Shown here: one piece after another, positions 26,284 through 52,904 of the stretch | Layout of the letters: each line of letters starts with the position of its first letter | Numbering within the stretch: position 1 is the stretch's first letter | NCBI GenBank assembly: GCA_018027755.1 | Contig: GCA_018027755.1_4098.1 | DNA length: 64,000 nt | DNA from: a phage | Direction: 5' to 3' (one strand) | The notes under the pieces: model-generated | What the model was told of the DNA's origin: nothing | Database searches by the model: none | Seen by the model: the letters and a program-made list of their open reading frames with translations, nothing else | Made by a program: the position numbers and the translations under genes

Positions 26284-26288
26284 TAAAA

Positions 26289-26308: not shown

Positions 26309-26350
26309 TTTGTTGTATCATAACTTCTCAATATAACTGAGGTATCATAT

Positions 26351-26464: not shown

Positions 26465-26472
26465 GGGATATC

Positions 26473-27029: not shown

Positions 27030-27040
27030 TGGTATAGTAC

Positions 27041-27059
27041 AGTGAAAATAGGGTTGACT
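27041..27059 (+). terminator. intrinsic terminator hairpin
   Basis: gggttgacttcggtcaacc. Confidence 0.5.
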
Positions 27060-27079
27060 TCGGTCAACCTTTATATATA

Positions 27080-27622: not shown

Positions 27623-27626
27623 AAAT

Positions 27627-28886
27627 ATGCCACAAGATAATGGGGATATGAAACATCGTAATGGTGGACTAGTACAACACTCGGATAAATGGGCCGACCG
27701 AAATCGTCGCAAAAATAGTTATCAAGCAGGACAAGGTTCACGTGGTTCCAGAAACCAAGGAACGGGACTTGCTGGTAAGGCAAACGCAGAAGCAGGTGAA
27801 GTTAAGAGTACTGAGAACATGACTGAGCTAGAAAAGCTACGTTATGTTAATTCATTGGGACTTCTTAATGCTACACAAAAACAACGTCTAGCTGATATGG
27901 AACGTGAAGAAAAAGAAAAGTCTGCTCCTGCGAAAGAAGAACCAAAACAAGAAGCACCAAAGGCGGTTAACCCTGTCAAAGAACTGTCTGATAAGTTAGG
28001 TAAGATTTTTGCTAATAAACCACAACTTATCCAAGGTATTGTGAAAGAATTGCAATCTGTACCTAAAGAAGAATTAAAAGTCAAAGCACAAGCTGTACTT
28101 GATGCAATGAGTGGAAATACCAGTACTGAACCAACTGAAGTATTCAGTACTATAATGCGTGCACTTGAAGGTACGCAACAAGGTGATGTGCCTGCACAAG
28201 AGGAAGTAAGTCTTGAAAGCGTACTTAAAACATTTGATAGTATTGGTAAAGAAGACCGTGCTAATGCTCAACAAGTTAAGAATGTACTAGCTAAGTTAGA
28301 AAACCGTCTGGAAGGTAAAGACGATAAGATTAAATTAGTATCTGATGCAGTTAACGATGCACTTAAATCTTATGTACAAGGTGAAAAGAGTCGTTTTGTA
28401 ACTGCAATGGATGCTGCATTCAATACTATGAAAAAGTATGAAGCTGATCATGGTGAGAAGGTTACACGAGATGGTTATCTGATGCGTGATGATGAAGAAG
28501 GTGCAGTAGAACAGAATGATGTTCATTCAGACGAAGAAATTGATGACATGGAAGCTGAACTGTCACAAGACCGCCAAATGACTGAAAAATCCCATAACGA
28601 ACTACAGAAATTAATGCAATGGGTTGCAGATGTTGGTGAAAAAGCTGGTGCTGATAAGAAGAGTATAAACCGAAATCTTAGTTGGATTAAAGATAAAGTT
28701 GGTAACAACGCTCGTAAACTACAAAAAGCGTGGACTGATGTAGTGAATGGTGCTGTTGACATTGATGTTGAATCCGGTGAGGCATATGATTATGCATTGA
28801 CTACACTTGATGACTCTTTCCGTGATTACGAAAATGGAAATGTAACTCCTTGGGAAAAGGATATCATGAGCAAATACGGTAAATGA
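27627..28886 (+). CDS. hypothetical charged protein (419 aa)
   Basis: Long ORF, Lys/Glu-rich and predicted helical; SD GAGGATTAAAAAT upstream. Confidence 0.6.
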   Translation: MPQDNGDMKHRNGGLVQHSDKWADRNRRKNSYQAGQGSRGSRNQGTGLAGKANAEAGEVKSTENMTELEKLRYVNSLGLLNATQKQRLADMEREEKEKSAPAKEEPKQEAPKAVNPVKELSDKLGKIFANKPQLIQGIVKELQSVPKEELKVKAQAVLDAMSGNTSTEPTEVFSTIMRALEGTQQGDVPAQEEVSLESVLKTFDSIGKEDRANAQQVKNVLAKLENRLEGKDDKIKLVSDAVNDALKSYVQGEKSRFVTAMDAAFNTMKKYEADHGEKVTRDGYLMRDDEEGAVEQNDVHSDEEIDDMEAELSQDRQMTEKSHNELQKLMQWVADVGEKAGADKKSINRNLSWIKDKVGNNARKLQKAWTDVVNGAVDIDVESGEAYDYALTTLDDSFRDYENGNVTPWEKDIMSKYGK

Positions 28887-29943: not shown

Positions 29944-30282
29944 ATGGAACAATATTTTGAATTAATAAACAAAGTATCATTTTATGTAGTATCTTTGGTT
30001 TGGGTGTATTATATGTTTTGCTATATTATTGCATTCTTCCGATATACTACTTTATATGAACGTATCTACTATGATGCCCCAATTTCATTCTTGATGTTTT
30101 GTGCATGTACGTGGGGAATATTAGAAGTACTGATATGTGGGTATAGTACTGATGAATTAAATCTGGTATCGGTGTTGACTGGGTTTTCATTTGTTGTTAT
30201 GATAGCTGCCGTTCCAGTATGGTTGTTCTTTGGACTAGTTCATCGCATTGATATATGGCGTTCTAATATCCCTGAAAAGTAA
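29944..30282 (+). CDS. small multi-TM membrane protein, family M
   Basis: ~112 aa, 3 TM segments, basic C-terminal tail ..RSNIPEK. Confidence 0.55.
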   Translation: MEQYFELINKVSFYVVSLVWVYYMFCYIIAFFRYTTLYERIYYDAPISFLMFCACTWGILEVLICGYSTDELNLVSVLTGFSFVVMIAAVPVWLFFGLVHRIDIWRSNIPEK

Positions 30283-30285
30283 GGA

Positions 30286-30633
30286 TTGGAAATGATTTAT
30301 TACACTAACATGTTTGCCTATGCTGTTGCTTGCATTTACATTGTTTACTTCTTATTCGGTGGAGTACTGTGCTTCTTTAAGTACAAAACGTTGTTCAACC
30401 GAATGTACCCAAATCATCCAATTGTAGTTGTACTTTTGATTCTTTCAGTTTCTCAAATAATCGTTGAAACTACAATGGGTATCAGTAGTGTACATTATAG
30501 TTTTGGCACTATAGTAATTATTACTATGCTTATTGCATACATTTTAGTACTTGGATATGGTATCTTTGGTAATATTGGTATGAAAATGTATCATCGAATT
30601 AAAACATTACGTGATAATCTACCGGAGCGTTGA
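30286..30633 (+). CDS. small multi-TM membrane protein, family M
   Basis: 3 TM segments; tail ..LRDNLPER. Confidence 0.55.
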   Translation: MEMIYYTNMFAYAVACIYIVYFLFGGVLCFFKYKTLFNRMYPNHPIVVVLLILSVSQIIVETTMGISSVHYSFGTIVIITMLIAYILVLGYGIFGNIGMKMYHRIKTLRDNLPER

Positions 30634-39959: not shown

Positions 39960-41093
39960 TTAAGGTTTATTTTTATAATTAATTTCTACATAGTTACGTT
40001 GTGTTCCAGTATATCCTGGAACATTCCCTATATTTCCATTACCTGCACCAAACAGACGTTCTCCGACTGCAAAATATGTCCCATAGAAACAACCATCAAA
40101 CACAGGAACATCATTATAATTTGATATGTAATTATCCATTGAATCCATTCTAGTGTATGCAGTCAGAGTTACATTTGTACCTATACCATATGCACCATAA
40201 GGGTTAGTACCAGCAACATAATACCCAGTGGGTGTACATATTACTGGTGAATTTGCCCCTGATCTCGTGTGGATAAATCTAAATGTACCTTCAGGTACTG
40301 GTGCTTCTTTACTGAATAATGTTGTAGCTACTACTGGGTAATCAATACCATAACTATTACCACTCAACCACGTTTTACCATCACTATCTTTGAATAATGA
40401 ACAGGATTGTGTGCATCCGAACAGATTCAAATTGGTTACATTTGGAAATTTACTAATTTGTGTATATACCAGAACTGTGGTTGCGGCAGCACTACCAAGT
40501 TGTCCACGACCATTATCACCCGCACTGTACATGTACCCATCGGTCTTTAATATTATACTAGCGTTTCCTAAAATATCAAAATCAACAACATCCGTTTGTG
40601 TTAATGTAGCTATAGGATAACGAAAATTCACTGCCTCACCAGTACCAAATTGACAATTGGTGTTTACCCCACATCCATATAAGTTGCCGTTTTGCATTAA
40701 TATAAACAAACCTGTTGTCATTTTAATTTTCTTAATATTAAGAATATCTATATCTTGGAATATGTGTGTTACATTTACAAATGTGGTTGAGTTAACAGTA
40801 CTTGAACCATAATAAGAACCGTTCCCGCTACCAAAGAATTCATCGCCTTTTCTGTACATTGCACATAGACTGCCACCCCATACATCATCAACTCCAGTGT
40901 CAATTTGAATAACTGAAGTAACACTAGTTGTTGCACCAGTGCCAAGTTCACCACCTGAATTGAATCCAAAACCATACAAATCTCCACTTTCGGTGAGCAC
41001 CAAAACACTGTTATTGGTTGTGCATGAAATCTTTTTGATATTATTAGATGGTCTTTTATTTCCGTACTTAACCATTCTTGCAAAAGGTAACAT
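39960..41093 (-). CDS. RCC1-like beta-propeller repeat protein, MLPF-family paralog (377 aa)
   Basis: MLPFARMVKYGN; RCC1-type motifs YGCGVNTNCQFGTGEA and YSAGDNGRGQLGSAA. Confidence 0.8.
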   Translation of the reverse strand: MLPFARMVKYGNKRPSNNIKKISCTTNNSVLVLTESGDLYGFGFNSGGELGTGATTSVTSVIQIDTGVDDVWGGSLCAMYRKGDEFFGSGNGSYYGSSTVNSTTFVNVTHIFQDIDILNIKKIKMTTGLFILMQNGNLYGCGVNTNCQFGTGEAVNFRYPIATLTQTDVVDFDILGNASIILKTDGYMYSAGDNGRGQLGSAAATTVLVYTQISKFPNVTNLNLFGCTQSCSLFKDSDGKTWLSGNSYGIDYPVVATTLFSKEAPVPEGTFRFIHTRSGANSPVICTPTGYYVAGTNPYGAYGIGTNVTLTAYTRMDSMDNYISNYNDVPVFDGCFYGTYFAVGERLFGAGNGNIGNVPGYTGTQRNYVEINYKNKP

Positions 41094-41140
41094 GATTTCT
41101 CTCCTTTATCCATTATACTATATTTAATACAAATAAGAAA

Positions 41141-41159
41141 GCCAGTACAGAGTACTGGC
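41141..41159 (-). terminator. junction terminator hairpin
   Basis: gccagtactctgtactggc. Confidence 0.6.
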
Positions 41160-41166
41160 TTTTACA

Positions 41167-42357
41167 TTACAATTGTCTAGGTGTATCCAGAACATATCTA
41201 TTTGTTTTAGGACCACCATCATCATAAGTTCCGGTTGAATATATATTTTTCATATCAGCAGTTAGGAAAGTACGTAACGACCCTCGATATATTTTTATTT
41301 TATCATACATAGAATATGTTATTTCTGACGGCAATGGACATGCAGTAAATTTACCAATGGTAACATTAGAACCAACACCCAATGAACCAGCATAACTACT
41401 CGCATTTAAACCTGTTGCATATACACCAGTACTCGTAACTAGTATACTAGATTGTGCTGGGTATCCAGTATGGATTGAATAATAAGTACCGGGTGGTAAT
41501 GTAGCACTATTATTTCCTAAAACTCCATTAACAGTGCTAGATGTAGTTTTATTTCCCCATGCCCCATTATTAGCGTTACCACCTACTAGGAACTGACGTG
41601 CTCCTGTACTTGGATTCTCTACTAAAGCACTGACAGCACCAAATGAACAAACAGTATATTGTAATGTTTTTGTATATGTGGTACTTGGCTTATACAAAGT
41701 ATATTCATTAAATGGTGTCCATGTGGTACTAGTACTTATGCCAGATGTACTACCACCAATATATAAATTATTTTGTGTATCAAAAAACATTGCACAGTAA
41801 TTTGTTGACTGTATTTGTGCAATATCTACATCTGGTGTTACCGCTTTAACAAATGAACCATCTGATATTTGATAAGTAGTTCCTGTACCATCTGCGAATT
41901 GTCTAGCACTATTCCACCCTGTACTCCATATTGTATTATTATCCATTAAGAAAGTAAACCATGTAGTACCTGCATACATCTGTTTAATTGAAGTACTTGA
42001 ACTTTGTTTGTACAATTTTTCAATATATTGGTTATAACTTAAAAATGATGTAGTACTAGTTTCTAAACCAATATGACTACCATATCCACAATAAAAATAA
42101 TTTAAGTCCTTATCTTGAACTAACAAAGTTCCTTGTGTCATCCAGCAATCTTTGACATTTTCTCTAATTAATGTCCACGACCTTACTGCATTATTATTTC
42201 CTCTACCAAACTTCCCAAAACTATTACTGCCTCGTGCGTATAGTTGACCGTCGGTATAAAGTACAACAACCTCAGTATCAGTTGGTATTATTTTCTTAAT
42301 TTGTAGTGGTACAGGCACAATATTCCCATAATTCATCATTCTTGCAAAAGGTAACAT
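41167..42357 (-). CDS. RCC1-like beta-propeller repeat protein, MLPF-family paralog (396 aa)
   Basis: MLPFARMMNYGN; about 90% identical over the body to the copy at 45612..46802. Confidence 0.8.
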   Translation of the reverse strand: MLPFARMMNYGNIVPVPLQIKKIIPTDTEVVVLYTDGQLYARGSNSFGKFGRGNNNAVRSWTLIRENVKDCWMTQGTLLVQDKDLNYFYCGYGSHIGLETSTTSFLSYNQYIEKLYKQSSSTSIKQMYAGTTWFTFLMDNNTIWSTGWNSARQFADGTGTTYQISDGSFVKAVTPDVDIAQIQSTNYCAMFFDTQNNLYIGGSTSGISTSTTWTPFNEYTLYKPSTTYTKTLQYTVCSFGAVSALVENPSTGARQFLVGGNANNGAWGNKTTSSTVNGVLGNNSATLPPGTYYSIHTGYPAQSSILVTSTGVYATGLNASSYAGSLGVGSNVTIGKFTACPLPSEITYSMYDKIKIYRGSLRTFLTADMKNIYSTGTYDDGGPKTNRYVLDTPRQL

Positions 42358-42403
42358 AATTCCCCTCCTTATTCATTATACTATATTTAATACAAATAAG
42401 AAA

Positions 42404-42422
42404 GCCAGTATCAAGTACTGGC
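42404..42422 (-). terminator. junction terminator hairpin
   Basis: gccagtacttgatactggc. Confidence 0.6.
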
Positions 42423-42436
42423 ATAGTTTTATAGTA

Positions 42437-43546
42437 TCATTTCGGCATTGTAATTGCAGACCATGAGTTCGTGGTAATAGGACCTGGCACATACAAAAAA
42501 GAACCACAAGCATAAATTTGATTATTACCATCAAATACTATACTAAAATGTGCACATGTGTATAATGCTGATTTTTCTGGGTTGTAATTATCTAAAGTTA
42601 GTGTATTGGTGAATCTACTCAAACCACCACCAGAACCATTTCTACCAAATTCACCAGTACTATATATCTTTCCTTCGGTTGTTGCGTACATATTAACATA
42701 TGAAGTTGCACTTGATTTTGATATTTTATGTATCTTACTATCAATAGTAGTGGAGTTAAATGCAAATGGATATACTTGTGTGTTCGTTGTAATACCGTTA
42801 CCAAGTTGACCAACATACTGCCAACCTGCGTTGTATATATTGCTGGCTGAATAAGCAAGAGTACCAGTACTGTTACCACCAAATAGTTTAACACTTGTTA
42901 ACCTTCTTACTAGTGTAGTATACTGTCCGGGACTTACGCCAAGTGAACCATACCCACTGCTCCCGCAACCGAGAAGTTCATTATTTGATGTTAATATTAA
43001 TGTGTTATTCTGTGTACCCAATATATCAAGGACTGTATTAGCTCCGGTATTAACAACTGAAACAAAAGTACTCTGAGCCGTGGAATACCCACCACCGAGT
43101 GAATAGTTACCATTCATGCCTCTACCATAAACAATCGAACCACTAGCATCAACGTAGTGCATTGTATCTGCACCAATTGATATCATTTTAATATTAGATA
43201 TATGTGGAAATGAAGAAGTAACATTCAAACCACCCAACGGAATCATAGTATTTCCTGTGCCTAATTGTGTGGTAACTCCATGCATTATGAATTCTTCACC
43301 CTTGAGATAAAGAATATTGTACGCACCAGCCCATGCATCAGTAACACCTTCTGAAATTAATATCCAAGTATTTCTTGTTGCTGTATTTTCAACGTTTAAC
43401 TGCAAATACGTATTAACCCCACAACCATAAAGTGAGCCATCGCCATAGAGGACGTACAAATTATCAAGACCGCACAGTACTTTCTTTATCTTTGGAGCTT
43501 CAGGTGCAATATTTCCGTACTTAACCATTCTTGCAAAAGGTAACAT
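42437..43546 (-). CDS. RCC1-like beta-propeller repeat protein, MLPF-family paralog
   Basis: True start taken at MLPFARMVKYGN (43546) after AGGAG; only ~8 nt after the upstream gene's stop. Confidence 0.75.
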   Translation of the reverse strand: MLPFARMVKYGNIAPEAPKIKKVLCGLDNLYVLYGDGSLYGCGVNTYLQLNVENTATRNTWILISEGVTDAWAGAYNILYLKGEEFIMHGVTTQLGTGNTMIPLGGLNVTSSFPHISNIKMISIGADTMHYVDASGSIVYGRGMNGNYSLGGGYSTAQSTFVSVVNTGANTVLDILGTQNNTLILTSNNELLGCGSSGYGSLGVSPGQYTTLVRRLTSVKLFGGNSTGTLAYSASNIYNAGWQYVGQLGNGITTNTQVYPFAFNSTTIDSKIHKISKSSATSYVNMYATTEGKIYSTGEFGRNGSGGGLSRFTNTLTLDNYNPEKSALYTCAHFSIVFDGNNQIYACGSFLYVPGPITTNSWSAITMPK

Positions 43547-43554
43547 ATTCACTC

Positions 43555-44730
43555 CTATTCTGGTAAAATCATTTTCTTCATTTTAACTTGTTGTGTACCT
43601 GGACTCTGTTCCTGAAACATAGACCCGTTACCACACCAGTACACCTCATTAGTACCCACTAACGCGTATAACACACCAGAACCACCTTGTACTGAAAATG
43701 CATTAACATCTGGTGCAACATCCATATCCTCATATTGTACCTGGTGGTAATAAGATCTTTCTGATGCAGTAGTAACAGGCCAACCAAGAGGAACACCACT
43801 ACCACATGTATAAAGTTTACCATTCTGTGTCATTGCCATTATAAAATAATTCAAACTGTGATTGTTCATCGACCCAGCATCTGGTATAATACCACTAATT
43901 GCAGGAGTGGTACTAAATGGACTCATGATAATAGTAGTGTCGCCATACCCTATTCCTAAACAATAATCAGTGTTTTTTCCAGCAGTATATACATTAATCT
44001 TATTTCTATTGGATGTAAGTACTGAAGTGGTTTCAGGAGTACATGAAATACCAATAACTGTTCCAGATATATCAGTACTTACCGTAAATGTCGAAAGTTT
44101 AGAAGAACCTGACCCTAAGTTGTAACTTGCGTTATTCCCACATCTGTAGTATTGATTATTTTTAACATAATGGAAAGCATCCCCAGCCGTTGTTCCCGCA
44201 ATTATAGTAACTCCAGTAGCAATCTGAATTGGCGTTGTTTTTCTACCAGTAACACCCAATGCACCTCCTGTATTACGCCCAATCCCATATAAGTCCCCAT
44301 TACTTAACAAAATCAATAACGCACCATTTGATGCAGTAGTTTCAGTAGCAGCTATATCTACTACTGTAGTAAGTGCTGGTATTGTAGACAATAAAGATGT
44401 GATATTAGTCCATCCAGGAACTGGTGATGCAGATACACCGACATAACCCATTTGACCAGCTAAGTAAAATTCTCCGTCAGTCGTAAGTATAATTGTTGCT
44501 GCAAAGAAGCACCAAACATTAGAAACTTTATATGGACACTGTACCCACCCATTTTGCACATACGCAGTGCTATTATTTCCTAGCATATAGTGTGCACCAT
44601 TTCCACGTAGATATAAGTTACCACTATCAAATAACATACCCATATGTGATGGAGATGTACTTATCTTCATAACACCTGAAGGTGCTGGAACTCTGTTTCC
44701 GTACTTAACCATTCTTGCAAAAGGTAACAT
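43555..44730 (-). CDS. RCC1-like beta-propeller repeat protein, MLPF-family paralog
   Basis: Start at MLPFARMVKYGN (44730); the track's MNKGGN extension is the RBS read as codons. Confidence 0.75.
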   Translation of the reverse strand: MLPFARMVKYGNRVPAPSGVMKISTSPSHMGMLFDSGNLYLRGNGAHYMLGNNSTAYVQNGWVQCPYKVSNVWCFFAATIILTTDGEFYLAGQMGYVGVSASPVPGWTNITSLLSTIPALTTVVDIAATETTASNGALLILLSNGDLYGIGRNTGGALGVTGRKTTPIQIATGVTIIAGTTAGDAFHYVKNNQYYRCGNNASYNLGSGSSKLSTFTVSTDISGTVIGISCTPETTSVLTSNRNKINVYTAGKNTDYCLGIGYGDTTIIMSPFSTTPAISGIIPDAGSMNNHSLNYFIMAMTQNGKLYTCGSGVPLGWPVTTASERSYYHQVQYEDMDVAPDVNAFSVQGGSGVLYALVGTNEVYWCGNGSMFQEQSPGTQQVKMKKMILPE

Positions 44731-44775
44731 ATTTCCTCCTTTATTCATTATACTATATTTAATACAAAAAGAAAT

Positions 44776-44794
44776 GCCAGTATCAAGTACTGGC
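44776..44794 (-). terminator. junction terminator hairpin
   Basis: gccagtacttgatactggc. Confidence 0.6.
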
Positions 44795-44801
44795 CTATAT
44801 T

Positions 44802-45539
44802 TTAGACTGAATTGTTAGGATAATATCTCCCACGTCCCCATATTATTCGCACAGCACCACCACCAGCAGCCGTATAAGAAAAATTATCCCATATACTACC
44901 ACCACCACCATACATCTTACCAGCACCACCACTACCAGCACCACCATTATATGAACCATCGTATCTACCGCCAATACCATTAGCACCTTGAACAATGATA
45001 CCAGTACCACCACCCGTACCAATGAACGAGGTATTATAGAATGCACCACCACCACCGCCGCCGCCAGCACCATTTTCACCAGTGATTGCATCTCCGTTAC
45101 CACCTTTACCAGTGTAGCCACCAGCACCACCACCAATGACTGCACCACCACTTACACCAGCGTTGCCCCCATTACCACCACCATCATTAATAGCGTTAGC
45201 AGCTTTCCCACCTAGTCCACCAACCCTATATTCACCAGTGAAGCTAACACATAGTTTTTCAGTTCCACGATATAAACCGTTTTCAACTGCTGTAGTAGTG
45301 TTGGGATGTGTAAGAGAAACACTTAAGTACTCACCACTAGTAACCGGAATATTATTACGCCACGATAAGCCGCCGCCAGCACCACGTTGACCACCCGGCG
45401 AAATAACACATACTGATATTTCGGTAACGCTAGCAGGAACTGTAAATTGTGTTGTTCCTATTGTCGTGATTAATTGTTCACCATGTGGCTTATATTCAAT
45501 TTCATTCCCGTACTTAATCATTCTTCCAAAAGGTAACAT
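44802..45539 (-). CDS. glycine-rich MLPF-family protein (245 aa)
   Basis: MLPFGRMIKYGN followed by long poly-Gly runs (GGNGGNAGVSGGAVIGGGAGGYTGKGGNG...); no Gly-X-Y periodicity. Confidence 0.7.
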   Translation of the reverse strand: MLPFGRMIKYGNEIEYKPHGEQLITTIGTTQFTVPASVTEISVCVISPGGQRGAGGGLSWRNNIPVTSGEYLSVSLTHPNTTTAVENGLYRGTEKLCVSFTGEYRVGGLGGKAANAINDGGGNGGNAGVSGGAVIGGGAGGYTGKGGNGDAITGENGAGGGGGGGAFYNTSFIGTGGGTGIIVQGANGIGGRYDGSYNGGAGSGGAGKMYGGGGSIWDNFSYTAAGGGAVRIIWGRGRYYPNNSV

Positions 45540-45586
45540 AATTCCCTCCTTTATTCATTATAATATATTTAATACAAAAAAGAAAA

Positions 45587-45605
45587 GCCAGTACAAAGTA
45601 CTGGC
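45587..45605 (-). terminator. junction terminator hairpin
   Basis: gccagtactttgtactggc. Confidence 0.6.
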
Positions 45606-45611
45606 ATTATA

Positions 45612-46802
45612 TTATAACTGTCTTGGAGTATCCAGTACATATCTATTTGTACGAGGACCACCATCATCATCAGTTCCTGTTGAATATATATTTTTCATAT
45701 CAGCAGTTAGGAAAGTACGATACGAACCGCGATATATTTTAATTTTATCATACATAGAATATGTTATTTCTGACGGCAATGGACATGCAGTAAATTTACC
45801 AATGGTAACATTAGAACCAACACCCAATGTGCCAGCATAACTACTCGCATTTAAACCAGTTGCATATACACCTGCACTCGTAACTAGTATACTAGATTGT
45901 GTTGGGTATCCAGTATGAATTGAATACAAAGTACCGGGTGGTAAGGTTGTACTATTATTTCCTAAAACTCCATTAACAGTGCTAGATGTAGTTTTATTTC
46001 CCCATGCTCCATTATTAGCTAATCCACCAACTAGAAACTGACGTGCTCCTGTATTTGGATTCTCCACCAAAGCACTGACTGAACCCATTGAGCATCCAGT
46101 GTATTGTAACGTTTTTGTGTATGTGGTACTTGGCTGATATAAAGTATATTCATTATATAAAGTCCATGTAGTGCTGGAACTTATACCGGATGTACCACCA
46201 CCAATATATAAATTATTTTGTGTATCAAAAAACATTGCACAGCTATTTGTTGACATTATTTGTGCAATATCAACATCTGGTGTTACAGCTTTAACAAATG
46301 AACCATCGGTTATTTGTTGAGTTTTTCCAGTACCATCAGCGAATTGTTTAGCCCCACTCCACCCAGTACTCCATATTGTATTATTATCCATTAAGAAAGT
46401 AAACCATGTAGTACCTGCATACATCTGTTTAATTGAAGTACTTGAACTTTGTTTGTACAATTTTTCAATATATTGGTTATAACTTAAAAATGATGTAGTA
46501 CTAGTTTCTAAACCAATATAACCACCATAGCCACAATAAAAATAATTTAAGTCCTTATCTTGTACTAACAAAGTTCCTTCTGACATCCAACAATCGTTAA
46601 CGTTTTCTCTAATTAATGTCCATGTTCTTAATGCAGTGTTGTTTCCTCTCCCAAACTTCCCAAAACTATTATTGCCTCGTGCGTATAGTTGACCATCAGT
46701 ATAAAGTACAACAACATCACTATTGATTGGTATTATTTTCTTAATTTGAAGAGGCTCAGGTGTAATATTTCCATAATCAAACATTCTAACAAAAGGTAAC
46801 AT
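45612..46802 (-). CDS. RCC1-like beta-propeller repeat protein, MLPF-family paralog
   Basis: Start at MLPFVRMFDYGN (46802); near-duplicate of 41167..42357. Confidence 0.8.
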   Translation of the reverse strand: MLPFVRMFDYGNITPEPLQIKKIIPINSDVVVLYTDGQLYARGNNSFGKFGRGNNTALRTWTLIRENVNDCWMSEGTLLVQDKDLNYFYCGYGGYIGLETSTTSFLSYNQYIEKLYKQSSSTSIKQMYAGTTWFTFLMDNNTIWSTGWSGAKQFADGTGKTQQITDGSFVKAVTPDVDIAQIMSTNSCAMFFDTQNNLYIGGGTSGISSSTTWTLYNEYTLYQPSTTYTKTLQYTGCSMGSVSALVENPNTGARQFLVGGLANNGAWGNKTTSSTVNGVLGNNSTTLPPGTLYSIHTGYPTQSSILVTSAGVYATGLNASSYAGTLGVGSNVTIGKFTACPLPSEITYSMYDKIKIYRGSYRTFLTADMKNIYSTGTDDDGGPRTNRYVLDTPRQL

Positions 46803-46848
46803 ATTTCCTCCTTTATTCATTATACTATATTTAATACAAAAAAGAAAA

Positions 46849-46867
46849 GCCAGTATCAAGTACTGGC
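46849..46867 (-). terminator. junction terminator hairpin
   Basis: gccagtacttgatactggc. Confidence 0.6.
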
Positions 46868-46873
46868 CTATAT

Positions 46874-48043
46874 TTAAACTGGCGAATCTAATATAAATTC
46901 TAAACTACTAATGCCACCATATGTGACATCTGTTCCCGTGCTATATACAAAATTACCATCAGTTATATAAGTTCGGTTATAACTACCTGCCATCTGTGAC
47001 TTACTATAATCAAACCCATCAGGTACGATTGCTTTGGTATATACTAATGCATTAGTAGATGTACCAATACCTAACATACCAGCTTGTGTAGATTGATTGT
47101 AGCCGCAACAATATATACCATCTGTTGTAGCAATAACTTGGTTATAATATGAAGTATTGTTAGCAATGCTTACTACATCACCAGGTGGCATTAGTGATGC
47201 TGTTTGTACCTCAAATGCTCTATAATCTTTGAGAGAACCATCTTTCCCATCTGCTTGTGCACCAAATATTCTTGAACCACCATTTGCGATGATAGTTTTA
47301 CCAGTGGGATCAGTGCCTATTGCCATTGCCATTGAAGTACCATTATTCACATAGTACTTTATATTAATTGTATTACTTAAGCTGGTAGGAGCACCATAAT
47401 ATATATTATATAACTTACTTCCTGAACTTGTAACTGCATTGACTCTTCCTGTATAAAATAACCATCCTTGGTTTGTAACATAACCGTGCATTAAATTACT
47501 TGCAAACAATTTAACAGGTAATTGATTTGCTGCGGTAGGAACAGTACTTTTGACGAATCTACCAGAAACATGGTTAATTGTTGTCCCATCACCCAACTGA
47601 CCATCCGACCCTACTCCAGTACTCCATATTGTTTGGTCTGATAGTAACACACTTGTAGTCTGATAACTAACGGCTATATCTAATATTGGTAATGTTAATG
47701 TATTGAATATAGGCATAGCAGATGTCCATATTGATACTCCTGACCCTTTCATACCAACAGTTGTTGAACTTCCACTGTACCATATTTCATTATTGCTTTT
47801 CTTAACAACTATCGACGTGGCTCCCATCCAAAAATCTTCAACACCAGAAGTACTAAAAGTCCATGTAGTAACAGTATTTTTGTGACCTAAACCCAAAATA
47901 CCATATGCATTATCACCACGCACATATAAATCACCACTGTTTGTTAAAACAGCAACATTATAGTTGTTAGCAAGTATTTTTTTAATATTTGGTTTAGCAG
48001 GTGCAATATTCCCGTAATCAAACAATCTCACAAAAGGTAACAT
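46874..48043 (-). CDS. RCC1-like beta-propeller repeat protein, MLPF-family paralog
   Basis: Start at MLPFVRLFDYGN (48043); motifs YVRGDNAYGILGLG and WSTGVGSDGQLGDG. Confidence 0.8.
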   Translation of the reverse strand: MLPFVRLFDYGNIAPAKPNIKKILANNYNVAVLTNSGDLYVRGDNAYGILGLGHKNTVTTWTFSTSGVEDFWMGATSIVVKKSNNEIWYSGSSTTVGMKGSGVSIWTSAMPIFNTLTLPILDIAVSYQTTSVLLSDQTIWSTGVGSDGQLGDGTTINHVSGRFVKSTVPTAANQLPVKLFASNLMHGYVTNQGWLFYTGRVNAVTSSGSKLYNIYYGAPTSLSNTINIKYYVNNGTSMAMAIGTDPTGKTIIANGGSRIFGAQADGKDGSLKDYRAFEVQTASLMPPGDVVSIANNTSYYNQVIATTDGIYCCGYNQSTQAGMLGIGTSTNALVYTKAIVPDGFDYSKSQMAGSYNRTYITDGNFVYSTGTDVTYGGISSLEFILDSPV

Positions 48044-48088
48044 AATTCCTCCTTTATTCATTATACTATATTTACCCCAAAAAGAAAT

Positions 48089-48108
48089 GCCAGTACTTGA
48101 GTACTGGC
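48089..48108 (-). terminator. junction terminator hairpin
   Basis: gccagtactcaagtactggc. Confidence 0.6.
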
Positions 48109-48114
48109 ATTATG

Positions 48115-49224
48115 TTATTTTGGTAAATCAATTTTAGTAAAGACTGCAACATCTGCACTTGCACCTGGAATGGCGTAATACGATCCAGTACTATATACAT
48201 TCCCGTCTTTGGTTAATAATGATGTTAATCCGTCACTAAAAGCAACATCACTAATCTCACTAACTTCTACAGGTAATTGTAAATTAGCAGCACTATAGAT
48301 AGCACCCGTTTGAGAATTGTTTAATCCCAAACCACGGTTTCCCCCAATACCTTTCTGATATGCACTAGTTAATATAATTTGCGTAGCCGTGCTTGTTGCC
48401 TCTGAATTTGTCATAAACAAAGGTGAATTATTAGGTAAAGTACTTACAGGAACTGCTTTGAATGTAGTTGAATCTGAACTAAGAAAGTTTGGAGTTGTAC
48501 CACATGTGAAATATGATGTACCATTATAGTAATTGAGTGTATGTCCACCAATAGCTGCATCTATTACACCAGAACTACGCAGTCCCCAAATGTTAACTTG
48601 TGTTCTGTTCCCTGTGCCATGTAATCCACGGTCATTCCACCCTGAACTATATAACTTATTATCTATGCTAATATACATACTATCATTAGGAGTAGACATA
48701 ACTTTACGCACATTAGAAGCACATAGTGTTAATGTATATATTGATGAAGAACCAATCCCCAATACACCACGGTATCCATTAGCCCCAGCACCATAGAGTA
48801 CTGAACTTGAACTGAGTACAAATATTACACCACCATTGCATACAATATTAGCAATTTGATTCACAGGAATTGTATTTGTAAACCACTCCGTTCTATCAAC
48901 TAATGTAGTACTGTAAGAAGTTGTTGATGATGATGTGAACCAAAATGTTTCACCTGATGTCCATATCGTATTGTCATTTTTAATAATAACAAGTGTTCGT
49001 CCTCCAGTGAAAAAATTAGAAACATCTGCACTTACTAATGTCCAAGAAGATACCGTGTTTTTATTACCATTTCCAGATTCACCACCTTGATTTCTGCCTA
49101 TGTAATACAATTCATGTGAATCAGTCAATACGAATTGACCTTGAGTAGAAGCACCAACTTTAATTATATTTTTAGGACCAGAGGTAATATTCCCATAATC
49201 AAATAGTCTTACAAAAGGTAACAT
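48115..49224 (-). CDS. RCC1-like beta-propeller repeat protein, MLPF-family paralog
   Basis: Start at MLPFVRLFDYGN (49224) after AGGAGG; ~8 nt after the upstream gene's stop. Confidence 0.75.
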   Translation of the reverse strand: MLPFVRLFDYGNITSGPKNIIKVGASTQGQFVLTDSHELYYIGRNQGGESGNGNKNTVSSWTLVSADVSNFFTGGRTLVIIKNDNTIWTSGETFWFTSSSTTSYSTTLVDRTEWFTNTIPVNQIANIVCNGGVIFVLSSSSVLYGAGANGYRGVLGIGSSSIYTLTLCASNVRKVMSTPNDSMYISIDNKLYSSGWNDRGLHGTGNRTQVNIWGLRSSGVIDAAIGGHTLNYYNGTSYFTCGTTPNFLSSDSTTFKAVPVSTLPNNSPLFMTNSEATSTATQIILTSAYQKGIGGNRGLGLNNSQTGAIYSAANLQLPVEVSEISDVAFSDGLTSLLTKDGNVYSTGSYYAIPGASADVAVFTKIDLPK

Positions 49225-49232
49225 AATTCCTC

Positions 49233-50435
49233 CTATTGTTGCCATAACTGCGTTGGCATTAATGTTAGTGTAGTAATACTATAAGTGCCATCAGGCAATC
49301 TACCACCATTACCATTCCAGCCACCACATGCATATAATTTATAATCTTTAGTAATTATTATGGTTCTGCTCCAATCTTTAGATGCCATAAGAACATTGTC
49401 ATAACCACCACTTATTGCATTAAGATTAAAAATATTCCAAGTCCTAACTAATGTATTAGTTCCATTACCTTCTTGACCGTATCCGTTAGCACCACTACTT
49501 CTAACATATGGTGCGTATTGTGCCATAGGTGCACCAATTGATGCATTTCCCATATTACTTGGACAAATAAAAGTACTGTACTTACTTACATCAACCGTGA
49601 CCGATGTGTTCCTAATTGGTGTTAGCTGATTTACCGATGTAGTCGTACCATTACCAGCTTGTCCAGTACTGTTAGCCCCGCTATAATATACAGGCCCACC
49701 AGTAGTAAACCACCAAGTAACATCGTATGTAGTACTAATATGTTCGACATCACTCATCACATATTTGTTCAAATATATCATAGAACTAGCACCACAACCA
49801 CTTTCACCGAAGTTATCCTTACCACAAAACCATGCCTTTTTATTTGATTTAATATAGTGCGTTCCTTGTAATGAACATGCCATATGTGTAACTTCACCCA
49901 TATTAGTCATAACTGTTAGTGTAGGTATGGAATTTTGATTACCAGACCCACATTCACCATTGGTATTTCTTCCACACGCAATTACTCTACCATCGGTTAA
50001 TAATATTCTAGTACTTTCACCTATATATACACTCTTGATCATATTAGCCATAACACCAATTTTATTAAATGAAGCAGTAACATCAGTCCATGTTCTCAAA
50101 TAACCATTAACAGGTGTTGCATCTCCATAATCAGAAAATGCACCAACCGACCCAGTGTAGTATATTTTATTATCCAAATCAATCATCAATGAACCTTGAA
50201 CACCAAGCCAAAAGGCTGCACATCGCGTTGCAAGTACTGTAAATGACGCAACTGCTGCTGAATTCCCAAGACCAAATTGATAAAAGTTATTACTACCATA
50301 ACCATATAAAGTATTAGTTGGGCTATGTAGATACATACAGTTTGTATAATGTTGTTGTAAAACATCTGAGAACTCTACAGGTTCTGGACCTGGTGCAATA
50401 TTTGCGTACTTAACCATTCGTGCAAAAGGTAACAT
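49233..50435 (-). CDS. RCC1-like beta-propeller repeat protein, MLPF-family paralog (400 aa)
   Basis: MLPFARMVKYAN; motifs YGYGSNNFYQFGLGN and YSGANSTGQAGNGTT. Confidence 0.8.
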   Translation of the reverse strand: MLPFARMVKYANIAPGPEPVEFSDVLQQHYTNCMYLHSPTNTLYGYGSNNFYQFGLGNSAAVASFTVLATRCAAFWLGVQGSLMIDLDNKIYYTGSVGAFSDYGDATPVNGYLRTWTDVTASFNKIGVMANMIKSVYIGESTRILLTDGRVIACGRNTNGECGSGNQNSIPTLTVMTNMGEVTHMACSLQGTHYIKSNKKAWFCGKDNFGESGCGASSMIYLNKYVMSDVEHISTTYDVTWWFTTGGPVYYSGANSTGQAGNGTTTSVNQLTPIRNTSVTVDVSKYSTFICPSNMGNASIGAPMAQYAPYVRSSGANGYGQEGNGTNTLVRTWNIFNLNAISGGYDNVLMASKDWSRTIIITKDYKLYACGGWNGNGGRLPDGTYSITTLTLMPTQLWQQ

Positions 50436-50481
50436 ATTTCCCTCCTTTATTCATTATACTATATTTAATACAAAAAGAAAT

Positions 50482-50500
50482 GCCAGTATCAAGTACTGGC
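50482..50500 (-). terminator. junction terminator hairpin
   Basis: gccagtacttgatactggc. Confidence 0.6.
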
Positions 50501-50507
50501 ATAGTAT

Positions 50508-51635
50508 TCAAAAAGGTAAATCAATTTGCTTAGTAATAATAGTATCTAACGGTATTGAACACAATGAGAAATTCTTTCCACCCGTATTTTTAGGATTATA
50601 TCCATTCATCCATACATTATTACCTTCGTAAAATGTATTCCAGTATAAAGACCCACTATATCGTGTATTCGAATTGAACGATGTAAAATTGAATTCTTGA
50701 AATGCTGTAAAATATGGAAGGGAACTTGAACTACTTCCCGTAAATGGGGTATGCCCAGTTGCTATTAGTTTGTTTGTATCTGCATTAATTAAAAATACAA
50801 CACTAGTCGAATAGTCCAACGAATCAGGATGATATATATTACTCATATCACCTATAGTAAAACCAACATCAAAAACTTTACTATGTGCACCACTACCAGC
50901 AAAAGTAGTTCCAGTTGCATATATTTTATTATCAGATGTTATCATTACAAAACCAACACCAGAAACAAAACTGCATTTTATATCATAAGATATATCATCA
51001 AACAACGGAACAAATGTGGTTGCATCACCCGATGTTGCTTTAACTTGAAAGCTGTTATTTGAACCTGAACCATATACAGTTCCATCGTTTTTAATCTTAA
51101 ACAATGTATCGCCAAGGTAACCGCCAAATATATTATCCACATTAGTGTCAAGTACAGTCCACGCTGAAACATAATTTTTATGTCCTAAACCTAATGCACC
51201 ACTTCGATTCCATCCTCTTCCATAAAGTGTTCCGTCTTTCATTAATATAAATGCTGTATAACCACATAACATTTTTTTAATTTGGGTAACATCTATACCA
51301 GTGAAATACACAGCCCAGTCAGTATATCCTTGTTGGAAAGTATTAGAATTCGTGAATGCATATGTTGAACCTGAACCATATATTTTATCACCTTTAATAA
51401 CAACGGAAAACGATCCTAACCATAAGTCATCAACTTCAGTTGTGATTTGTTGAACTGCTCCTAACGATACAAACTTTGTACTTAAACCCGCATTATAGTT
51501 TGAATCTTCACCGTGTGCATATACAGTGCCATCTTGCATTAGAAACATTTCAAGAGTGTAACTAACAACACTTTTCTTTATATTATTAACTTCGATTATA
51601 TTCCCATAATCAAACATTCTAACAAAAGGTAACAT
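50508..51635 (-). CDS. MLPF-family paralog (375 aa), Gly/Ser/Thr/Asn/Tyr-rich
   Basis: MLPFVRMFDYGN; weaker RCC1-like motifs. Confidence 0.7.
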   Translation of the reverse strand: MLPFVRMFDYGNIIEVNNIKKSVVSYTLEMFLMQDGTVYAHGEDSNYNAGLSTKFVSLGAVQQITTEVDDLWLGSFSVVIKGDKIYGSGSTYAFTNSNTFQQGYTDWAVYFTGIDVTQIKKMLCGYTAFILMKDGTLYGRGWNRSGALGLGHKNYVSAWTVLDTNVDNIFGGYLGDTLFKIKNDGTVYGSGSNNSFQVKATSGDATTFVPLFDDISYDIKCSFVSGVGFVMITSDNKIYATGTTFAGSGAHSKVFDVGFTIGDMSNIYHPDSLDYSTSVVFLINADTNKLIATGHTPFTGSSSSSLPYFTAFQEFNFTSFNSNTRYSGSLYWNTFYEGNNVWMNGYNPKNTGGKNFSLCSIPLDTIITKQIDLPF

Positions 51636-51707
51636 AATTCCCTCCTTTATTCATTATACTTTATTTAATACAAATAAGAATTCCTGTATCGAGTACTGGC
51701 ATTCAAT

Positions 51708-52856
51708 TTATTGTAAAAAGGACATATCTACTTCTGTATAACTAAGAATGTTTTGACCAGCAATTCCACCCATTACTACTATTGCATACCCACAATAATA
51801 TAATTTCCCAGTGTCCGTAAGTATAAGTGAACCAGAAGGTGTTCTTACCAAATTACACGAACTATTAAAAGAAGTATACGAAGGAGTATAGGAGTACTGA
51901 TTAATATTATTACCAACACCTAATTGACCACCCCTATTCGAACCAGATGCATAAAGTACTTCATCTGCTTTGACAATATGTGATGCCATGTTAGCAACAC
52001 ATGCATATACACCATATACCCCTGTACTCAATAATGTAGGAGTCTTGTATTGAATATCAGTACTAGTAGATGTTCCACCTGTGCCAAATTCATTACCATA
52101 TTGTGCTCCGTACTGCTTCCCACATGCGTACAAATTATTATCCGATTTGATAAAAAATGTACTCTGATAACTTACATCAAAATCTATAACATCCGAAGAA
52201 ATCATCGTTACCCCAGTAATCGAAGTTTGATTACCAGTACCCAACTGGTAGTAATAGTTAAAACCACAACCCCATAAAGTATTATCTTCTCGCAAATAAA
52301 TGTTACCAACAGCCTTTTTAACAGATGTTATAGTACTGACCTTCTTGAATGTATTAAATGAATCAATGTTAGTACCATCTCCAAAGGAGGATATGTTCGA
52401 TGCGTTATTAGCACCACAACAATATAATGTCCCATCCTTCAGTACTAAATTTACCTTCATATCATTAAAACTGCTCATGTACTCAATATCAGATACACTA
52501 ATACCACCTGATGTTATCCACGTAGTACAGTCCGTCCATAACGTCTTCCTATCAGTTACCCCAGTAAATGCCTTCGTGTTACCAGTGATAAACACTTTAC
52601 CAGTACCCTTTTCTTCATACAATTGACAATCACTACTGTTATCTTCCAATAAAACCCTCTGTACATTCTCTGCACAAAGAATAAATTTACTCGAAGCTAC
52701 TCCTGTACCAGTACCCCAATTCGTCGCAGAAGATGCATACAACTTGTGTGTTAGTGTATCATGCAAATACATAGAACCACTAGAATATATTTTAAAACGC
52801 CCTTCTTTCTCAGGTATAATATTCCCATAATCAAACATTCTAACAAAAGGTAACAT
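51708..52856 (-). CDS. MLPF-family paralog, Gly/Ser/Thr/Asn/Tyr-rich
   Basis: Start at MLPFVRMFDYGN (52856); first gene of the minus-strand array. Confidence 0.7.
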   Translation of the reverse strand: MLPFVRMFDYGNIIPEKEGRFKIYSSGSMYLHDTLTHKLYASSATNWGTGTGVASSKFILCAENVQRVLLEDNSSDCQLYEEKGTGKVFITGNTKAFTGVTDRKTLWTDCTTWITSGGISVSDIEYMSSFNDMKVNLVLKDGTLYCCGANNASNISSFGDGTNIDSFNTFKKVSTITSVKKAVGNIYLREDNTLWGCGFNYYYQLGTGNQTSITGVTMISSDVIDFDVSYQSTFFIKSDNNLYACGKQYGAQYGNEFGTGGTSTSTDIQYKTPTLLSTGVYGVYACVANMASHIVKADEVLYASGSNRGGQLGVGNNINQYSYTPSYTSFNSSCNLVRTPSGSLILTDTGKLYYCGYAIVVMGGIAGQNILSYTEVDMSFLQ

Positions 52857-52904
52857 ATTTCCTCCTTTATTCATTATATCATATTTACCCCATAAACAAA
52901 ACCC

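Follow-up and report, generated by a model that had tools for sequence, protein, structure and literature searches.

What does a 12-residue peptide do when it heads both a series of RCC1-like propellers and a glycine-rich protein of another kind? The question is raised by the window, the whole 64,000-nucleotide stretch of phage DNA analysed here, whose source is a Rak2-like jumbo coliphage (Asteriusvirus). A sequence-only reading of one of its genes had taken the peptide, here called the handle, for a targeting or anchoring N-terminus attached to structurally unrelated bodies, and had proposed structure prediction, virion mass spectrometry (MS), and a search for glycine-rich tail-fibre domains as checks. 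The features of the locus are summarized in Table 1.

Table 1. Coordinates of the Gly-rich gene, its parts, its flanking signals, and the surrounding handle genes in the window.
Feature	Coordinates	Strand	Remarks
Complete CDS of the Gly-rich MLPF protein	44802..45539	minus	245 aa + stop; orthologue of 121Q gp243
N-terminal handle MLPFGRMIKYGN, codons 1-12	45504..45539	minus	sole part common to the RCC1 paralogues
Short linker EIEYKPH, residues 13-19	45483..45503	minus	not conserved with paralogues
Beta-strand half of body, residues 20-104	45228..45482	minus	13% Gly; motifs VPxxVTxI and GAGGGLSWRNNIPVT; most of the TNF-like sandwich
Glycine-rich lattice, residues 105-227	44859..45227	minus	~40% Gly; pLDDT 90-99, no helix/strand assigned
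C-terminal strand and tail GAVRIIWGRGRYYPNNSV, residues 228-245	44805..44858	minus	most conserved family signature, GAVRIIWGxxRxYP
Shine-Dalgarno AAAGGAGGG	45544..45552	minus	4 nt upstream of ATG
Conserved A+T-rich box TGTATTAAATATATTATAATG	45556..45576	minus	upstream of 11/13 handle genes; presumed phage promoter
Terminator hairpin GCCAGTACTTTGTACTGGC and T-run	45587..45605	minus	ends upstream paralogue
Terminator hairpin GCCAGTACTTGATACTGGC and T-run	44776..44794	minus	directly past stop codon of Gly-rich gene
Array of 12 intact handle genes	38540..52874	minus	11 RCC1-like propellers and the Gly-rich gene
Thirteenth handle gene, pseudogene	37838..38464	minus	handle ORF stops after 36 codons
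C-terminal RCC1-like fragment ORF of the pseudogene	37838..38158	minus	

The Gly-rich gene and its reading frame are supported by homology. With 121Q gp243 the protein shares 98% identity, and the gene was found in 18 Asteriusvirus genomes. A word-index search returned 182 protein homologues (down to E = 1.8e-145), and the ORF matched PHROG 4474 with E = 9e-69. The profile search gathered 6778 cluster representatives for the family, which comprises standalone proteins of ~250 aa as well as domains within proteins of 500-5500 aa; the family match begins at about profile position 13. The handle itself begins at the ATG, and an in-frame stop lies 8 codons upstream of it.

The sequence-only reading had named, as what would refute it, that the interval is non-coding low-complexity DNA or that the real gene lies in another frame. 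Other frames do hold overlapping ORFs of 75-124 aa, and the local GC content rises to 0.49 at the gene. However, these ORFs are Val/Thr/Pro-rich by-products of GGT repeats, the tandem-repeat signal is minimal, and it is the Gly-rich frame that has the homologues and the PHROG match, a confident predicted fold, its own RBS with flanking terminators, and an orthologue detected in virions of phage CBB by MS. The chance that the gene is misread is thus negligible, and this objection is effectively ruled out. Among close orthologues, the changes are not mainly synonymous (in BF17, for example, 16 non-synonymous against 6 synonymous); the Asteriusvirus sequences are too similar for dN/dS to be informative, and it is alone no proof of purifying selection. 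In the public records inspected, the Asteriusvirus copies are annotated as "hypothetical protein". The CMSTMSU copy, from an UNVERIFIED record, contains frameshifts, and its fragment bears a note derived from M. tuberculosis.

The flanking signals present the gene as a self-contained unit, bracketed by two copies of one conserved terminator hairpin. Terminator-like sites numbered 23, against 6.1 +/- 2.7 in shuffled sequences, and a scan with the sigma-70 consensus gave no enrichment. The neighbouring RCC1 paralogues are named "DNA condensation proteins" in the annotation.

For the handle set, we required M-L-P-F-x-R/I-[LMIV]-x-x-Y-[GA]-N at the extreme N-terminus, a definition of the MLPF handle of Rak2-like jumbo phages that the Gly-rich protein satisfies. 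All 13 occurrences of the handle DNA pattern in the window are on the minus strand, and 100 shuffles gave 0 matches. As the sequence-only reading had stated, the Gly-rich paralog keeps the handle at its N-terminus, as do 12 other minus-strand genes of the window. Its further claim of a shared junction failed: identity to the 11 RCC1 paralogues is 8-10/12 in the handle and 0-2/18 in the next residues, so similarity to these paralogues ends at residue 12. The paralogues are only 18-25% identical, and 7 of their 14 invariant columns lie in the handle. No description of the handle was found in the searchable literature (reviews and Asteriusvirus papers).

A conserved 5' end could also reflect a constraint on DNA or RNA instead of a peptide function, with promoter, RBS, and first codons duplicated and homogenised as a cassette, or with a translation-initiation element at the start of the gene. 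The upstream box, the RBS, and codons 1-4 (ATG TTA CCT TTT) are identical in all 13 window copies, and the terminator hairpins are near-identical too. Gene conversion contributes to the local uniformity, given this identity of cassette and codons 1-4 at the DNA level within the window. However, two genes without the cassette (starts 49224 and 43546) still have the handle, and genera whose bodies are dissimilar to one another have retained the handle. In CBB, ten handles lie behind dissimilar upstream sequences, and their codons vary synonymously at L2, P3, F4, Y10, G11, and N12 with the residues fixed. An explanation at the nucleic-acid level is therefore very improbable, and the sequence comparisons indicate that selection acts on the handle at the peptide level.

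The AlphaFold2 (AF2) models give the handle no fixed structure. Residues 1-7 of the Gly-rich protein have pLDDT < 50, and in an RCC1 neighbour residues 1-14 are unstructured, again with pLDDT < 50. The idea that the handle is the closing "velcro" strand of the RCC1 propellers was weakened by the neighbour model, whose poor C-terminal third limits this test; it is also disfavoured because the handle heads non-propeller bodies.

The body had been described as dominated by poly-Gly runs, and this holds for part of it. The C-terminal ~140 residues are Gly-rich, whereas residues 13-104 contain 13% Gly and read as ordinary beta-strand sequence. Glycine makes up 28% of the protein overall and 39% of residues 105-245, in runs of G3 to G7, seven of which lie within residues 55-228. 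The lattice region contains GGKAANAINDGGGNGGN, GGGAGGYTGKGGNG, G7, GGGTG, and YGGGG, with multiple GGGxGG-type motifs split by short variable loops. Nearly every invariant column of the family is Gly, with intervening loops that differ in both sequence and length. The stated lack of Gly-X-Y periodicity was borne out, with no period-3 signal (shuffle p ~0.67, the period-3 power being below the shuffle mean), Gly counts by phase of 20/16/19, and at most 2 consecutive G-X-Y triplets. A collagen-like nature was accordingly rejected, as was a microsatellite nature, the DNA showing just two short, weak period-3 stretches.

Structure prediction yielded a confident fold for the Gly-rich protein (mean pLDDT 93.6, pTM 0.90), namely a TNF-like beta-sandwich into which a lattice of extended Gly-rich segments is inserted. 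Nineteen residues precede the domain, and the sole helix comprises residues 111-114. On the question of polyglycine-II geometry, the Gly-rich segments have pLDDT 90-99 with no helix or strand assigned by DSSP. A Foldseek search put the same four structure families on top, with weak statistics against the PDB (E = 1.9e-3, TM ~0.28). The third-best viral structure match was a "PE-PGRS family protein" of pEa_SNUABM_47, and the closest structural match from an Erwinia phage bears this name. No Pfam family was found for the Gly-rich protein at E <= 1, and the gathering threshold of PF21722 (Gly_rich_2) was not reached. That family, to which Pfam assigns no function, nevertheless has the motifs GGGNGG, GGGAGGY, and GAVRIIWG in common with the window protein; 26 of 87 joint-family members match it, and hhalign of the window subfamily against the PF21722-positive subfamily gave a probability of 100% (E = 1.6e-58, 236 columns). 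As modelled, the body belongs to the phage 'glycine-rich / brush' type, a known kind of fold.

The search for glycine-rich tail-fibre domains thus found structural relatives, among them gp24 of cyanophage Pam3 and gp33 and gp29 of mycobacteriophage Bxb1. [quoted passage not shown] However, gp24 has an N-terminal alpha-helical shaft, trimerises, docks to the baseplate, and needs the chaperone gp25, whereas the window protein lacks a helical domain and has just the 12-residue handle; its model contains no N-terminal helical or coiled-coil shaft of the kind expected of a trimeric tail fibre. The Bxb1 'tail wing brush' gp33 and tail spike gp29 (PDB 9D93) belong to a siphovirus of a Gram-positive-like host and have neither sequence similarity to the window protein nor an MLPF-type handle. 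The glycine-rich domain of the ALK/LTK receptors (PDB 7LRZ, 7LIR, 7NX3, 7LS0) has this kind of fold as well, in the wholly different context of the ectodomain of metazoan receptor tyrosine kinases. Salmonella phage S16 gp38 follows a like logic, being a small polyglycine-lattice adhesin whose N-terminal part sits on the tip of another fibre protein, but the Gly-rich protein showed no three-helix attachment domain, no beta-helix with PGII sandwich, and no gp38 similarity of the T-even/S16 kind. In the solved relatives, the domain sits outermost, at the tip of a tail fibre or of a side appendage (wing). The Pam3 paper places the TNF-like/Gly-rich domain at the distal fibre end and proposes that it binds the receptor; other papers term the equivalent domains 'brush' or antireceptor domains, and the papers on solved domains propose host-surface contact via the variable loops between the glycine segments.

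The body is also distinct from those of its neighbours. The Gly-rich fold differs from the RCC1 beta-propeller, the protein has no RCC1 Pfam or PHROG match, and the best BLASTP hit against the 11 paralogues had E = 2.1. In related phages, the handle is found on RCC1 and Kelch propellers, on Laminin_G_3 jelly rolls, on an RCC1+Kelch fusion, and on others; examples are CBB_536, 537, and 548-554 and proteins of six further contigs (L005, L007, L008, L012, L025, and L028). The attachment of one handle to structurally unrelated bodies, as the sequence-only reading had supposed, thus extends beyond the window. Conversely, bodies of the Gly-rich and CBB_537 types bear MLExL-type N-termini in CR8, PVP-SE1, PCH45, and pEa_SNUABM_37, and the alignment of these proteins to the Rak2-type proteins starts only past the handle. 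A tblastn search with CBB_144, aimed at the N-terminus of the Eneladusvirus Gly-rich protein, gave no match in any Erwinia phage.

Virion MS places such proteins in the phage particle. CBB_144, the Gly-rich orthologue, is homologous to the window protein over its full length (probability 99.8%, E = 2.6e-30) and was detected in CBB virions with 5 peptides and 34% coverage; the CBB supplements give protein-level data only. CBB_536, 537, 548, 549, 551, 552, and 553 were detected as well, which makes 8 CBB handle proteins in total. In phAPEC6, the RCC1 paralogues gp003, 5, 6, 7, 9, and 10 were found in virions; the Gly-rich orthologue could not have surfaced in that proteome, since its gene is wrongly annotated in phAPEC6 as a fragment of 100 aa. 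Virion presence in CBB and phAPEC6 is accordingly demonstrated for orthologues or paralogues. Eneladusvirus virions also yielded a 'PE-PGRS family protein' by MS.

Only six of the CBB structural proteins detected by MS are absent from GAP32; CBB_144 is among them, and the CBB authors suspected these six of forming hairs. The reviews and Asteriusvirus papers that we searched name no hair proteins of CBB or phAPEC6. The handle proteins are themselves much too small to make up the 119-nm hairs. Handle proteins also occur in GAP32, a phage with no described hairs.

Together, these results support the original interpretation of the handle as an anchoring or targeting N-terminus. From them we infer that the Gly-rich protein docks via its handle, sits on the outside of the particle, and serves as an adhesin; it is probably, though by no means certainly, a virion-displayed adhesin module docked via a lineage-specific N-terminal peptide. 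It would be a small two-part virion protein, in which residues 1-12 would act as a flexible N-terminal docking peptide and residues ~20-245 form one compact domain, the TNF-like beta-sandwich with its projecting lattice of extended polyglycine segments. Rak2-like jumbo phages have this handle on many unrelated ligand-binding bodies (RCC1, Kelch, laminin-G-like, brush), and it may insert into one common acceptor site on the particle, so that one virion could display a mixed set of adhesin modules. Candidate acceptor sites are the unexplained hair-like fibres or the capsid or tail decoration sites. Twelve residues are short for a stable anchor.

In other viruses, N-terminal peptides of ~10-20 residues set the virion location of proteins that are variable or otherwise unrelated, as in the adenovirus fibre tail motif, which binds the penton base, and the T4 capsid-targeting sequence. 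Their likeness to the handle is a functional analogy only, with no sequence relationship. [quoted passage not shown] These proteins also combine a lineage-specific, conserved N-terminus with horizontally exchanged C-terminal binding bodies, as the MLPF and MLExL handles on common body families show for the present case; here, however, the shared part is 12 residues long and is carried by small, apparently monomeric globular proteins.

The T4 parallel also suggests a different destination. In T4 IPI-III, the capsid-targeting sequence is a short N-terminal tag on unrelated bodies, and the handle has the same logic. On this reading, the proteins would be delivered into the prohead, possibly with the tag removed by the prohead protease, packaged with the DNA, and ejected into the host, and they would be internal or ejected proteins, not surface adhesins. 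Detection by virion MS fits a location inside or outside alike, the phAPEC6 RCC1 proteins gave low peptide counts, and the phAPEC6 authors speculated that RCC1 proteins help to order the packaged DNA. However, all body types on the handle are classic extracellular ligand-binding folds (propellers, concanavalin-like jelly rolls, brush), the solved phage relatives of the Gly-rich body sit at the outer tips of fibres or wings, and there is no protease-site motif after the handle. Moreover, in a comparison of near-identical phages, two RCC1-type 'chromosome condensation regulators' were among seven products with < 50% identity, a divergence that is as expected for host-range determinants. We consider an internal location unlikely.

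The handle might instead be recognised transiently, for example during sorting or by a folding factor or assembly chaperone, or it might self-associate, with the body attaching by another surface. Fibre-tip domains of the brush fold need dedicated chaperones, Pam3 gp25 embracing both the TNF-like and the Gly-rich domains, and the disorder of the handle in the monomer models of the Gly-rich protein and the RCC1 neighbour fits any peptide-recognition role. However, apart from the handle, propellers, jelly rolls, and brushes share no surface that could explain their co-incorporation into virions, and no candidate chaperone gene was found within the handle-gene array. A transient or self-associating role is in our judgement improbable, and stable docking via the handle is the reading that we prefer.

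We tentatively extend the docking model to large myoviruses in general, a step that may well prove too broad. A tag of ~12 residues would load freely exchangeable cassettes onto one acceptor in a 'plug-and-display' manner and so provide a mixed, rapidly evolving adhesin repertoire. Rak2-like jumbo phages would use the tag MLPFxRMxxYGN; the tag of rV5-like and PCH45-like phages, and of some jumbo phages of Erwinia, would be MLExL.... Propellers of the RCC1 and Kelch types would serve as cassettes, as would concanavalin-like jelly rolls and the polyglycine brush. In CBB and phAPEC6 the hair-like fibres could be the acceptor, and the repertoire would be encoded as an array of self-contained promoter-gene-terminator units.

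The evidence thus points to a reassignment of this family, from hypothetical or "DNA condensation" proteins to a set of virion-displayed binding modules, and for the "hairy" appendages that CBB and phAPEC6 possess it offers the Gly-rich protein as a concrete candidate. The rare polyglycine "brush" fold would now take in standalone proteins of Gram-negative jumbo phages. If the 12-residue peptide suffices to mount arbitrary folded domains on a jumbo-phage particle, it would offer a ready-made display or retargeting tag for phage engineering. If true, the docking model would also explain how host-interaction modules are expanded and shuffled through tandem gene cassettes.

The glycine-rich gene comes from a jumbo coliphage of the Rak2-like type (genus Asteriusvirus), and its protein, 98.4% identical to 121Q gp243, is carried by 18 related phages. 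Against the rival reading of the region as non-coding or a wrong-frame artefact, the gene is real: it has a strong Shine-Dalgarno sequence, a conserved A+T-rich box upstream, and conserved hairpin terminators on both flanks. The protein is 28% glycine overall, with 13% in residues 13-104 and 39% in residues 105-245, and has runs of G3 to G7. The sequence-only reading had described a poly-Gly body without Gly-X-Y periodicity. The first part of this description is right for residues 105-245 and wrong for the first ~90 body residues, which are ordinary beta-strand sequence; the second part was confirmed, as the protein has no period-3 glycine signal and at most two consecutive G-X-Y triplets, and it is not of the collagen-like type. 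Microsatellite DNA was rejected as the source of the gene by a tandem-repeat check of its DNA.

The protein had no match in Pfam or NCBIfam, whereas PHROG 4474 was matched with E = 9e-69 and a word-index search returned 182 homologues. An 87-member family profile retrieved 6778 cluster representatives (2017 with E <= 1e-30), found as standalone proteins of ~250 aa and, within proteins of 500-5500 aa, as domains that are terminal, internal, or repeated. The family match starts at about profile position 13, i.e., past the handle, the 12-residue N-terminal peptide (MLPF...) shared with other genes. Pfam PF21722 (Gly_rich_2) was passed by 26 of the 87 members, and profile alignment of the window subfamily with the PF21722-positive subfamily reached 100% probability (E = 1.6e-58, 236 columns). 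AlphaFold2 confidently modelled a single domain (mean pLDDT 93.6, pTM 0.90), with pLDDT <50 in residues 1-7 only. The search for glycine-rich tail-fibre domains proposed in the sequence-only reading was rewarded: the best structure match was the cyanophage Pam3 tail fibre (7ypx, score 13.3), followed by the Bxb1 "tail wing brush" gp33 and tail spike gp29 (9d93, 9.7 and 8.8) and four chains of the ALK glycine-rich domain (7lrz, 7lir, 7nx3, and 7ls0, 7.6-8.0), and the next best scored 4.3. Foldseek ranked the same four structure families on top with weak statistics, and the best predicted viral structures were "glycine-rich domain-containing proteins" of uncultured phages, an Erwinia jumbo phage, a cyanophage, and giant viruses.

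In the Pam3 fibre, a TNF-like sandwich bearing a lattice of glycine-rich segments forms the distal end; its authors propose receptor binding by this distal domain and assign specificity to variable loop tips. Related domains, with polyproline-II-type helices, are named polyglycine-rich or "brush" antireceptor domains. The body, the remainder of the protein after the handle, is a new, divergent member of this known, fairly rare fold class, to which Pam3 gp24, Bxb1 gp33 and gp29, the ALK domain, and PF21722 belong. The predicted brush-type fold bears no structural relationship to that of the propeller paralogues. Unlike trimeric tail fibres, the protein has no shaft and is therefore not a trimeric fibre.

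Features of the glycine-rich gene, the handle-gene array, and related loci
Feature	Location	Strand	Remark
Glycine-rich CDS	44802..45539	-	245 aa, N-terminus MLPFGRMIKYGN
Shine-Dalgarno of glycine-rich gene	4 nt 5' of ATG		AAAGGAGGG
Flanking hairpin terminators	45587..45605 and 44776..44794		two copies
Array of 12 intact handle genes	38540..52874	-	glycine-rich gene and 11 RCC1-like beta-propellers
Decayed 13th handle gene (pseudogene)	37838..38464	-	counterpart of phAPEC6 gp010
Retained pseudogene C-terminus	37838..38158		separate ORF, RCC1-like
5'-extended paralogue starts	44731..44748, 46803..46859, 48044..48061, 52857..52874	-	
tRNA-Thr (TGT)	1519..1593	+	sole copy
Three small paralogue families of ORFs	2368..4699, 25900..28886, 29944..30633	+	unknown function
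RCC1-like + Kelch-like propeller fusion	L025 (IMG/VR 355-kb contig) 8416	-	667 aa, handle-headed
Remnant upstream of CBB_554	L004 (CBB, KU574722) 27075..27163	-	unannotated, MLPFPQ start
phAPEC6 glycine-rich gene	L001 (MK817115) 7325..8059	+	annotated as 100-aa fragment gp004, 7716..8018

At the DNA level, the window has 13 matches to the handle pattern, all on the minus strand, versus 0 in shuffles. The 11 array neighbours are RCC1-like beta-propellers (Pfam PF25390/PF00415, PHROG 4219), publicly annotated as "DNA condensation proteins", and in the pseudogene the MLPFGRMLKYGN... ORF ends after 36 codons. Between 38300 and 53100, nearly all paralogues share one upstream box (TGTATTAAATATAGTATAATGAATAAAGGAGG) and one hairpin terminator downstream (GCCAGTACTnnnGTACTGGC with a T-run), and the array region has 23 terminator-like sites versus 6.1 +/- 2.7 in shuffles. 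Neither signal accompanies the genes with starts at 49224 and 43546, which appear translationally coupled to the upstream gene. A mechanical ORF list gives several paralogues an earlier ATG (MNKGG[NI]MLPF...). This ATG sits in a conserved TATAATG box and "NKGG" is the translated ribosome-binding site AATAAAGGAGG; the upstream start was rejected in favour of the MLPF ATG.

Against the 11 paralogues, the glycine-rich protein has 8-10/12 identities in the handle and 0-2/18 just beyond, and the shared junction suggested earlier must be dropped. The paralogues are mutually 18-25% identical, and seven of their 14 invariant columns (M1, L2, P3, F4, R6, Y10, and N12) fall in the handle. Handle codons 1-4 and the upstream cassette are identical in DNA within the window; homogenisation by recombination therefore contributes, as expected if the conserved 5' end were a DNA-level cassette effect. 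The handle is also kept in two genes without the cassette, and in Pectobacterium phage CBB, ten handles with dissimilar upstream DNA keep their residues while six positions vary synonymously. Residues fixed despite such variation point, at the level of sequence comparison, to selection on the handle peptide. The handle is unstructured in the AlphaFold2 models of both the glycine-rich protein and an RCC1 neighbour, which argues against an integral strand of either body.

In CBB, the proteins CBB_536, 537, and 548-554 all begin MLPF[PSTA][RI]... and carry Kelch propellers, Laminin_G_3 (concanavalin-like) jelly rolls, or unclassified bodies; the glycine-rich orthologue CBB_144 begins MLPFSPLIVYGN. 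The handle also heads GAP32 gp1 and gp2 and genes of one 357-kb genome and of 355- and 371-kb metagenomic genomes, adding RCC1, more jelly-roll-like bodies, and an RCC1+Kelch fusion with four further handle genes within 6 kb. The earlier proposal that one handle is attached to structurally unrelated bodies is thus extended by the related genomes scanned to brush, RCC1, Kelch, and jelly-roll folds, and the handle is, judging from these comparisons, a clade-wide N-terminal module. No description of it was found in the literature searched; the BLASTP paralogue table of the CBB authors pairs only CBB_536/537 and CBB_549/553, so the common N-terminus went unnoticed. The remnant upstream of CBB_554 reads in another frame GGAVRIIYGDDRSFPNTLTNNQ and a stop, the C-terminal signature of the glycine-rich family, and looks like a second glycine-rich handle gene with an internal deletion. 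The homologue P0002 (206 aa, 26.7-kb Logan contig) is a natural variant of the glycine-rich gene that reads MNKGGNKIEYKPHGEQ...; it has lost the handle codons by an in-frame deletion, has a truncated end, and may be a decaying copy.

Outside the Rak2-like clade, most glycine-rich members begin M[LIF]E[LMT][LIM]... (e.g., PVP-SE1 gp19, MFEMMLATS). Homologues of the CBB_536/537-type body align only from residue 14-19 on and begin MLEIMTAAQ in CR8, MLENLLTGV in PCH45, and MLESILGGK in pEa_SNUABM_37, with more MLExL- or MNEMM-headed genes nearby. In Vequintavirinae, PCH45, and one jumbo phage of Erwinia, a second tag, M[LIFN]E[LIMTSN][LIM]..., is found on bodies of both the glycine-rich and the CBB_537 type (L021, CR8; L022, PCH45; L023, pEa_SNUABM_37; L003, PVP-SE1; and L013). 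In CR8-like genomes, second-tag genes lie in or adjoining a tRNA array and the body varies among close relatives: a metagenomic contig with flanking proteins 99% and 85% identical to CR8 has two MLELL/MIELL glycine-rich genes beside the array, where the CR8 genes are of the MLEIM/MNEMM type and have other bodies. Each of two body families is thus found with two types of handle. The handle goes with the lineage of the phage and the bodies are exchangeable, a pattern that would be expected of a docking tag with a lineage-specific acceptor. Other recurrent N-termini were observed, namely MKRFPGNIIT / MS[KR]RY.GGFI..., some then followed by FN3, and MSFG.PVRNG.GIGL.ASTSLSTRGG (glycine-rich family members P0035, P0043, P0060, P0063, P0078, P0092, P0093, and P0117; second set P0064, P0089, P0094, P0099, and P0106), and further tag types may exist.

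Orthologues and paralogues of the glycine-rich protein are present in virions. ESI-MS/MS of purified CBB particles detected CBB_144 (5 peptides, 34% coverage), whose homology to the window protein spans the full length (probability 99.8%, E = 2.6e-30), and the handle proteins CBB_536, 537, 548, 549, 551, 552, and 553. CBB_144, 536, 537, 551, and 552 account for five of the six structural proteins that were detected by MS and are missing in GAP32; the CBB authors regarded these six as candidate constituents of the 119-nm tail "hairs", whose ends bear "tiny terminal globular structures". The phAPEC6 virions, with hair-like fibres on capsid and tail, contained six RCC1 paralogues. The mis-annotation of the phAPEC6 glycine-rich gene made its detection impossible, and its absence from the published proteome is uninformative. 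In CMSTMSU (L016, UNVERIFIED record), the gene is broken by frameshifts. Eneladusvirus virions were found to contain a "PE-PGRS family protein", and a pEa_SNUABM_47 protein with this name was the third-best viral structure match.

We propose that the 12-residue handle would insert in a common acceptor on the particle and that the body would face outward, binding a host-surface ligand via the loops between glycine segments. By plain tally, several of the few orthologue substitutions lie in these loops (127/129, 150, 166/169, 192/194, 208/209, and 220). The handle could instead be an internal capsid-targeting signal, or a transient chaperone or sorting signal; neither of these, nor a cassette effect or an artefact, explains as well why ligand-binding folds, swapped handles, and peptide-level conservation occur together. 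Tail spikes and fibres are well known to combine a conserved N-terminal anchor with exchangeable receptor-binding C-termini. What appears new is that the anchor is only a 12-residue peptide, that five or more unrelated small globular bodies share this anchor, and that other lineages have a tag as its counterpart. Under the proposed mechanism, self-contained promoter-gene-terminator units arranged in an array would provide a mixed, rapidly changing adhesin repertoire, consistent with the report that two of the seven gene products with <50% identity between two same-species phages are RCC1-type "chromosome condensation regulators".
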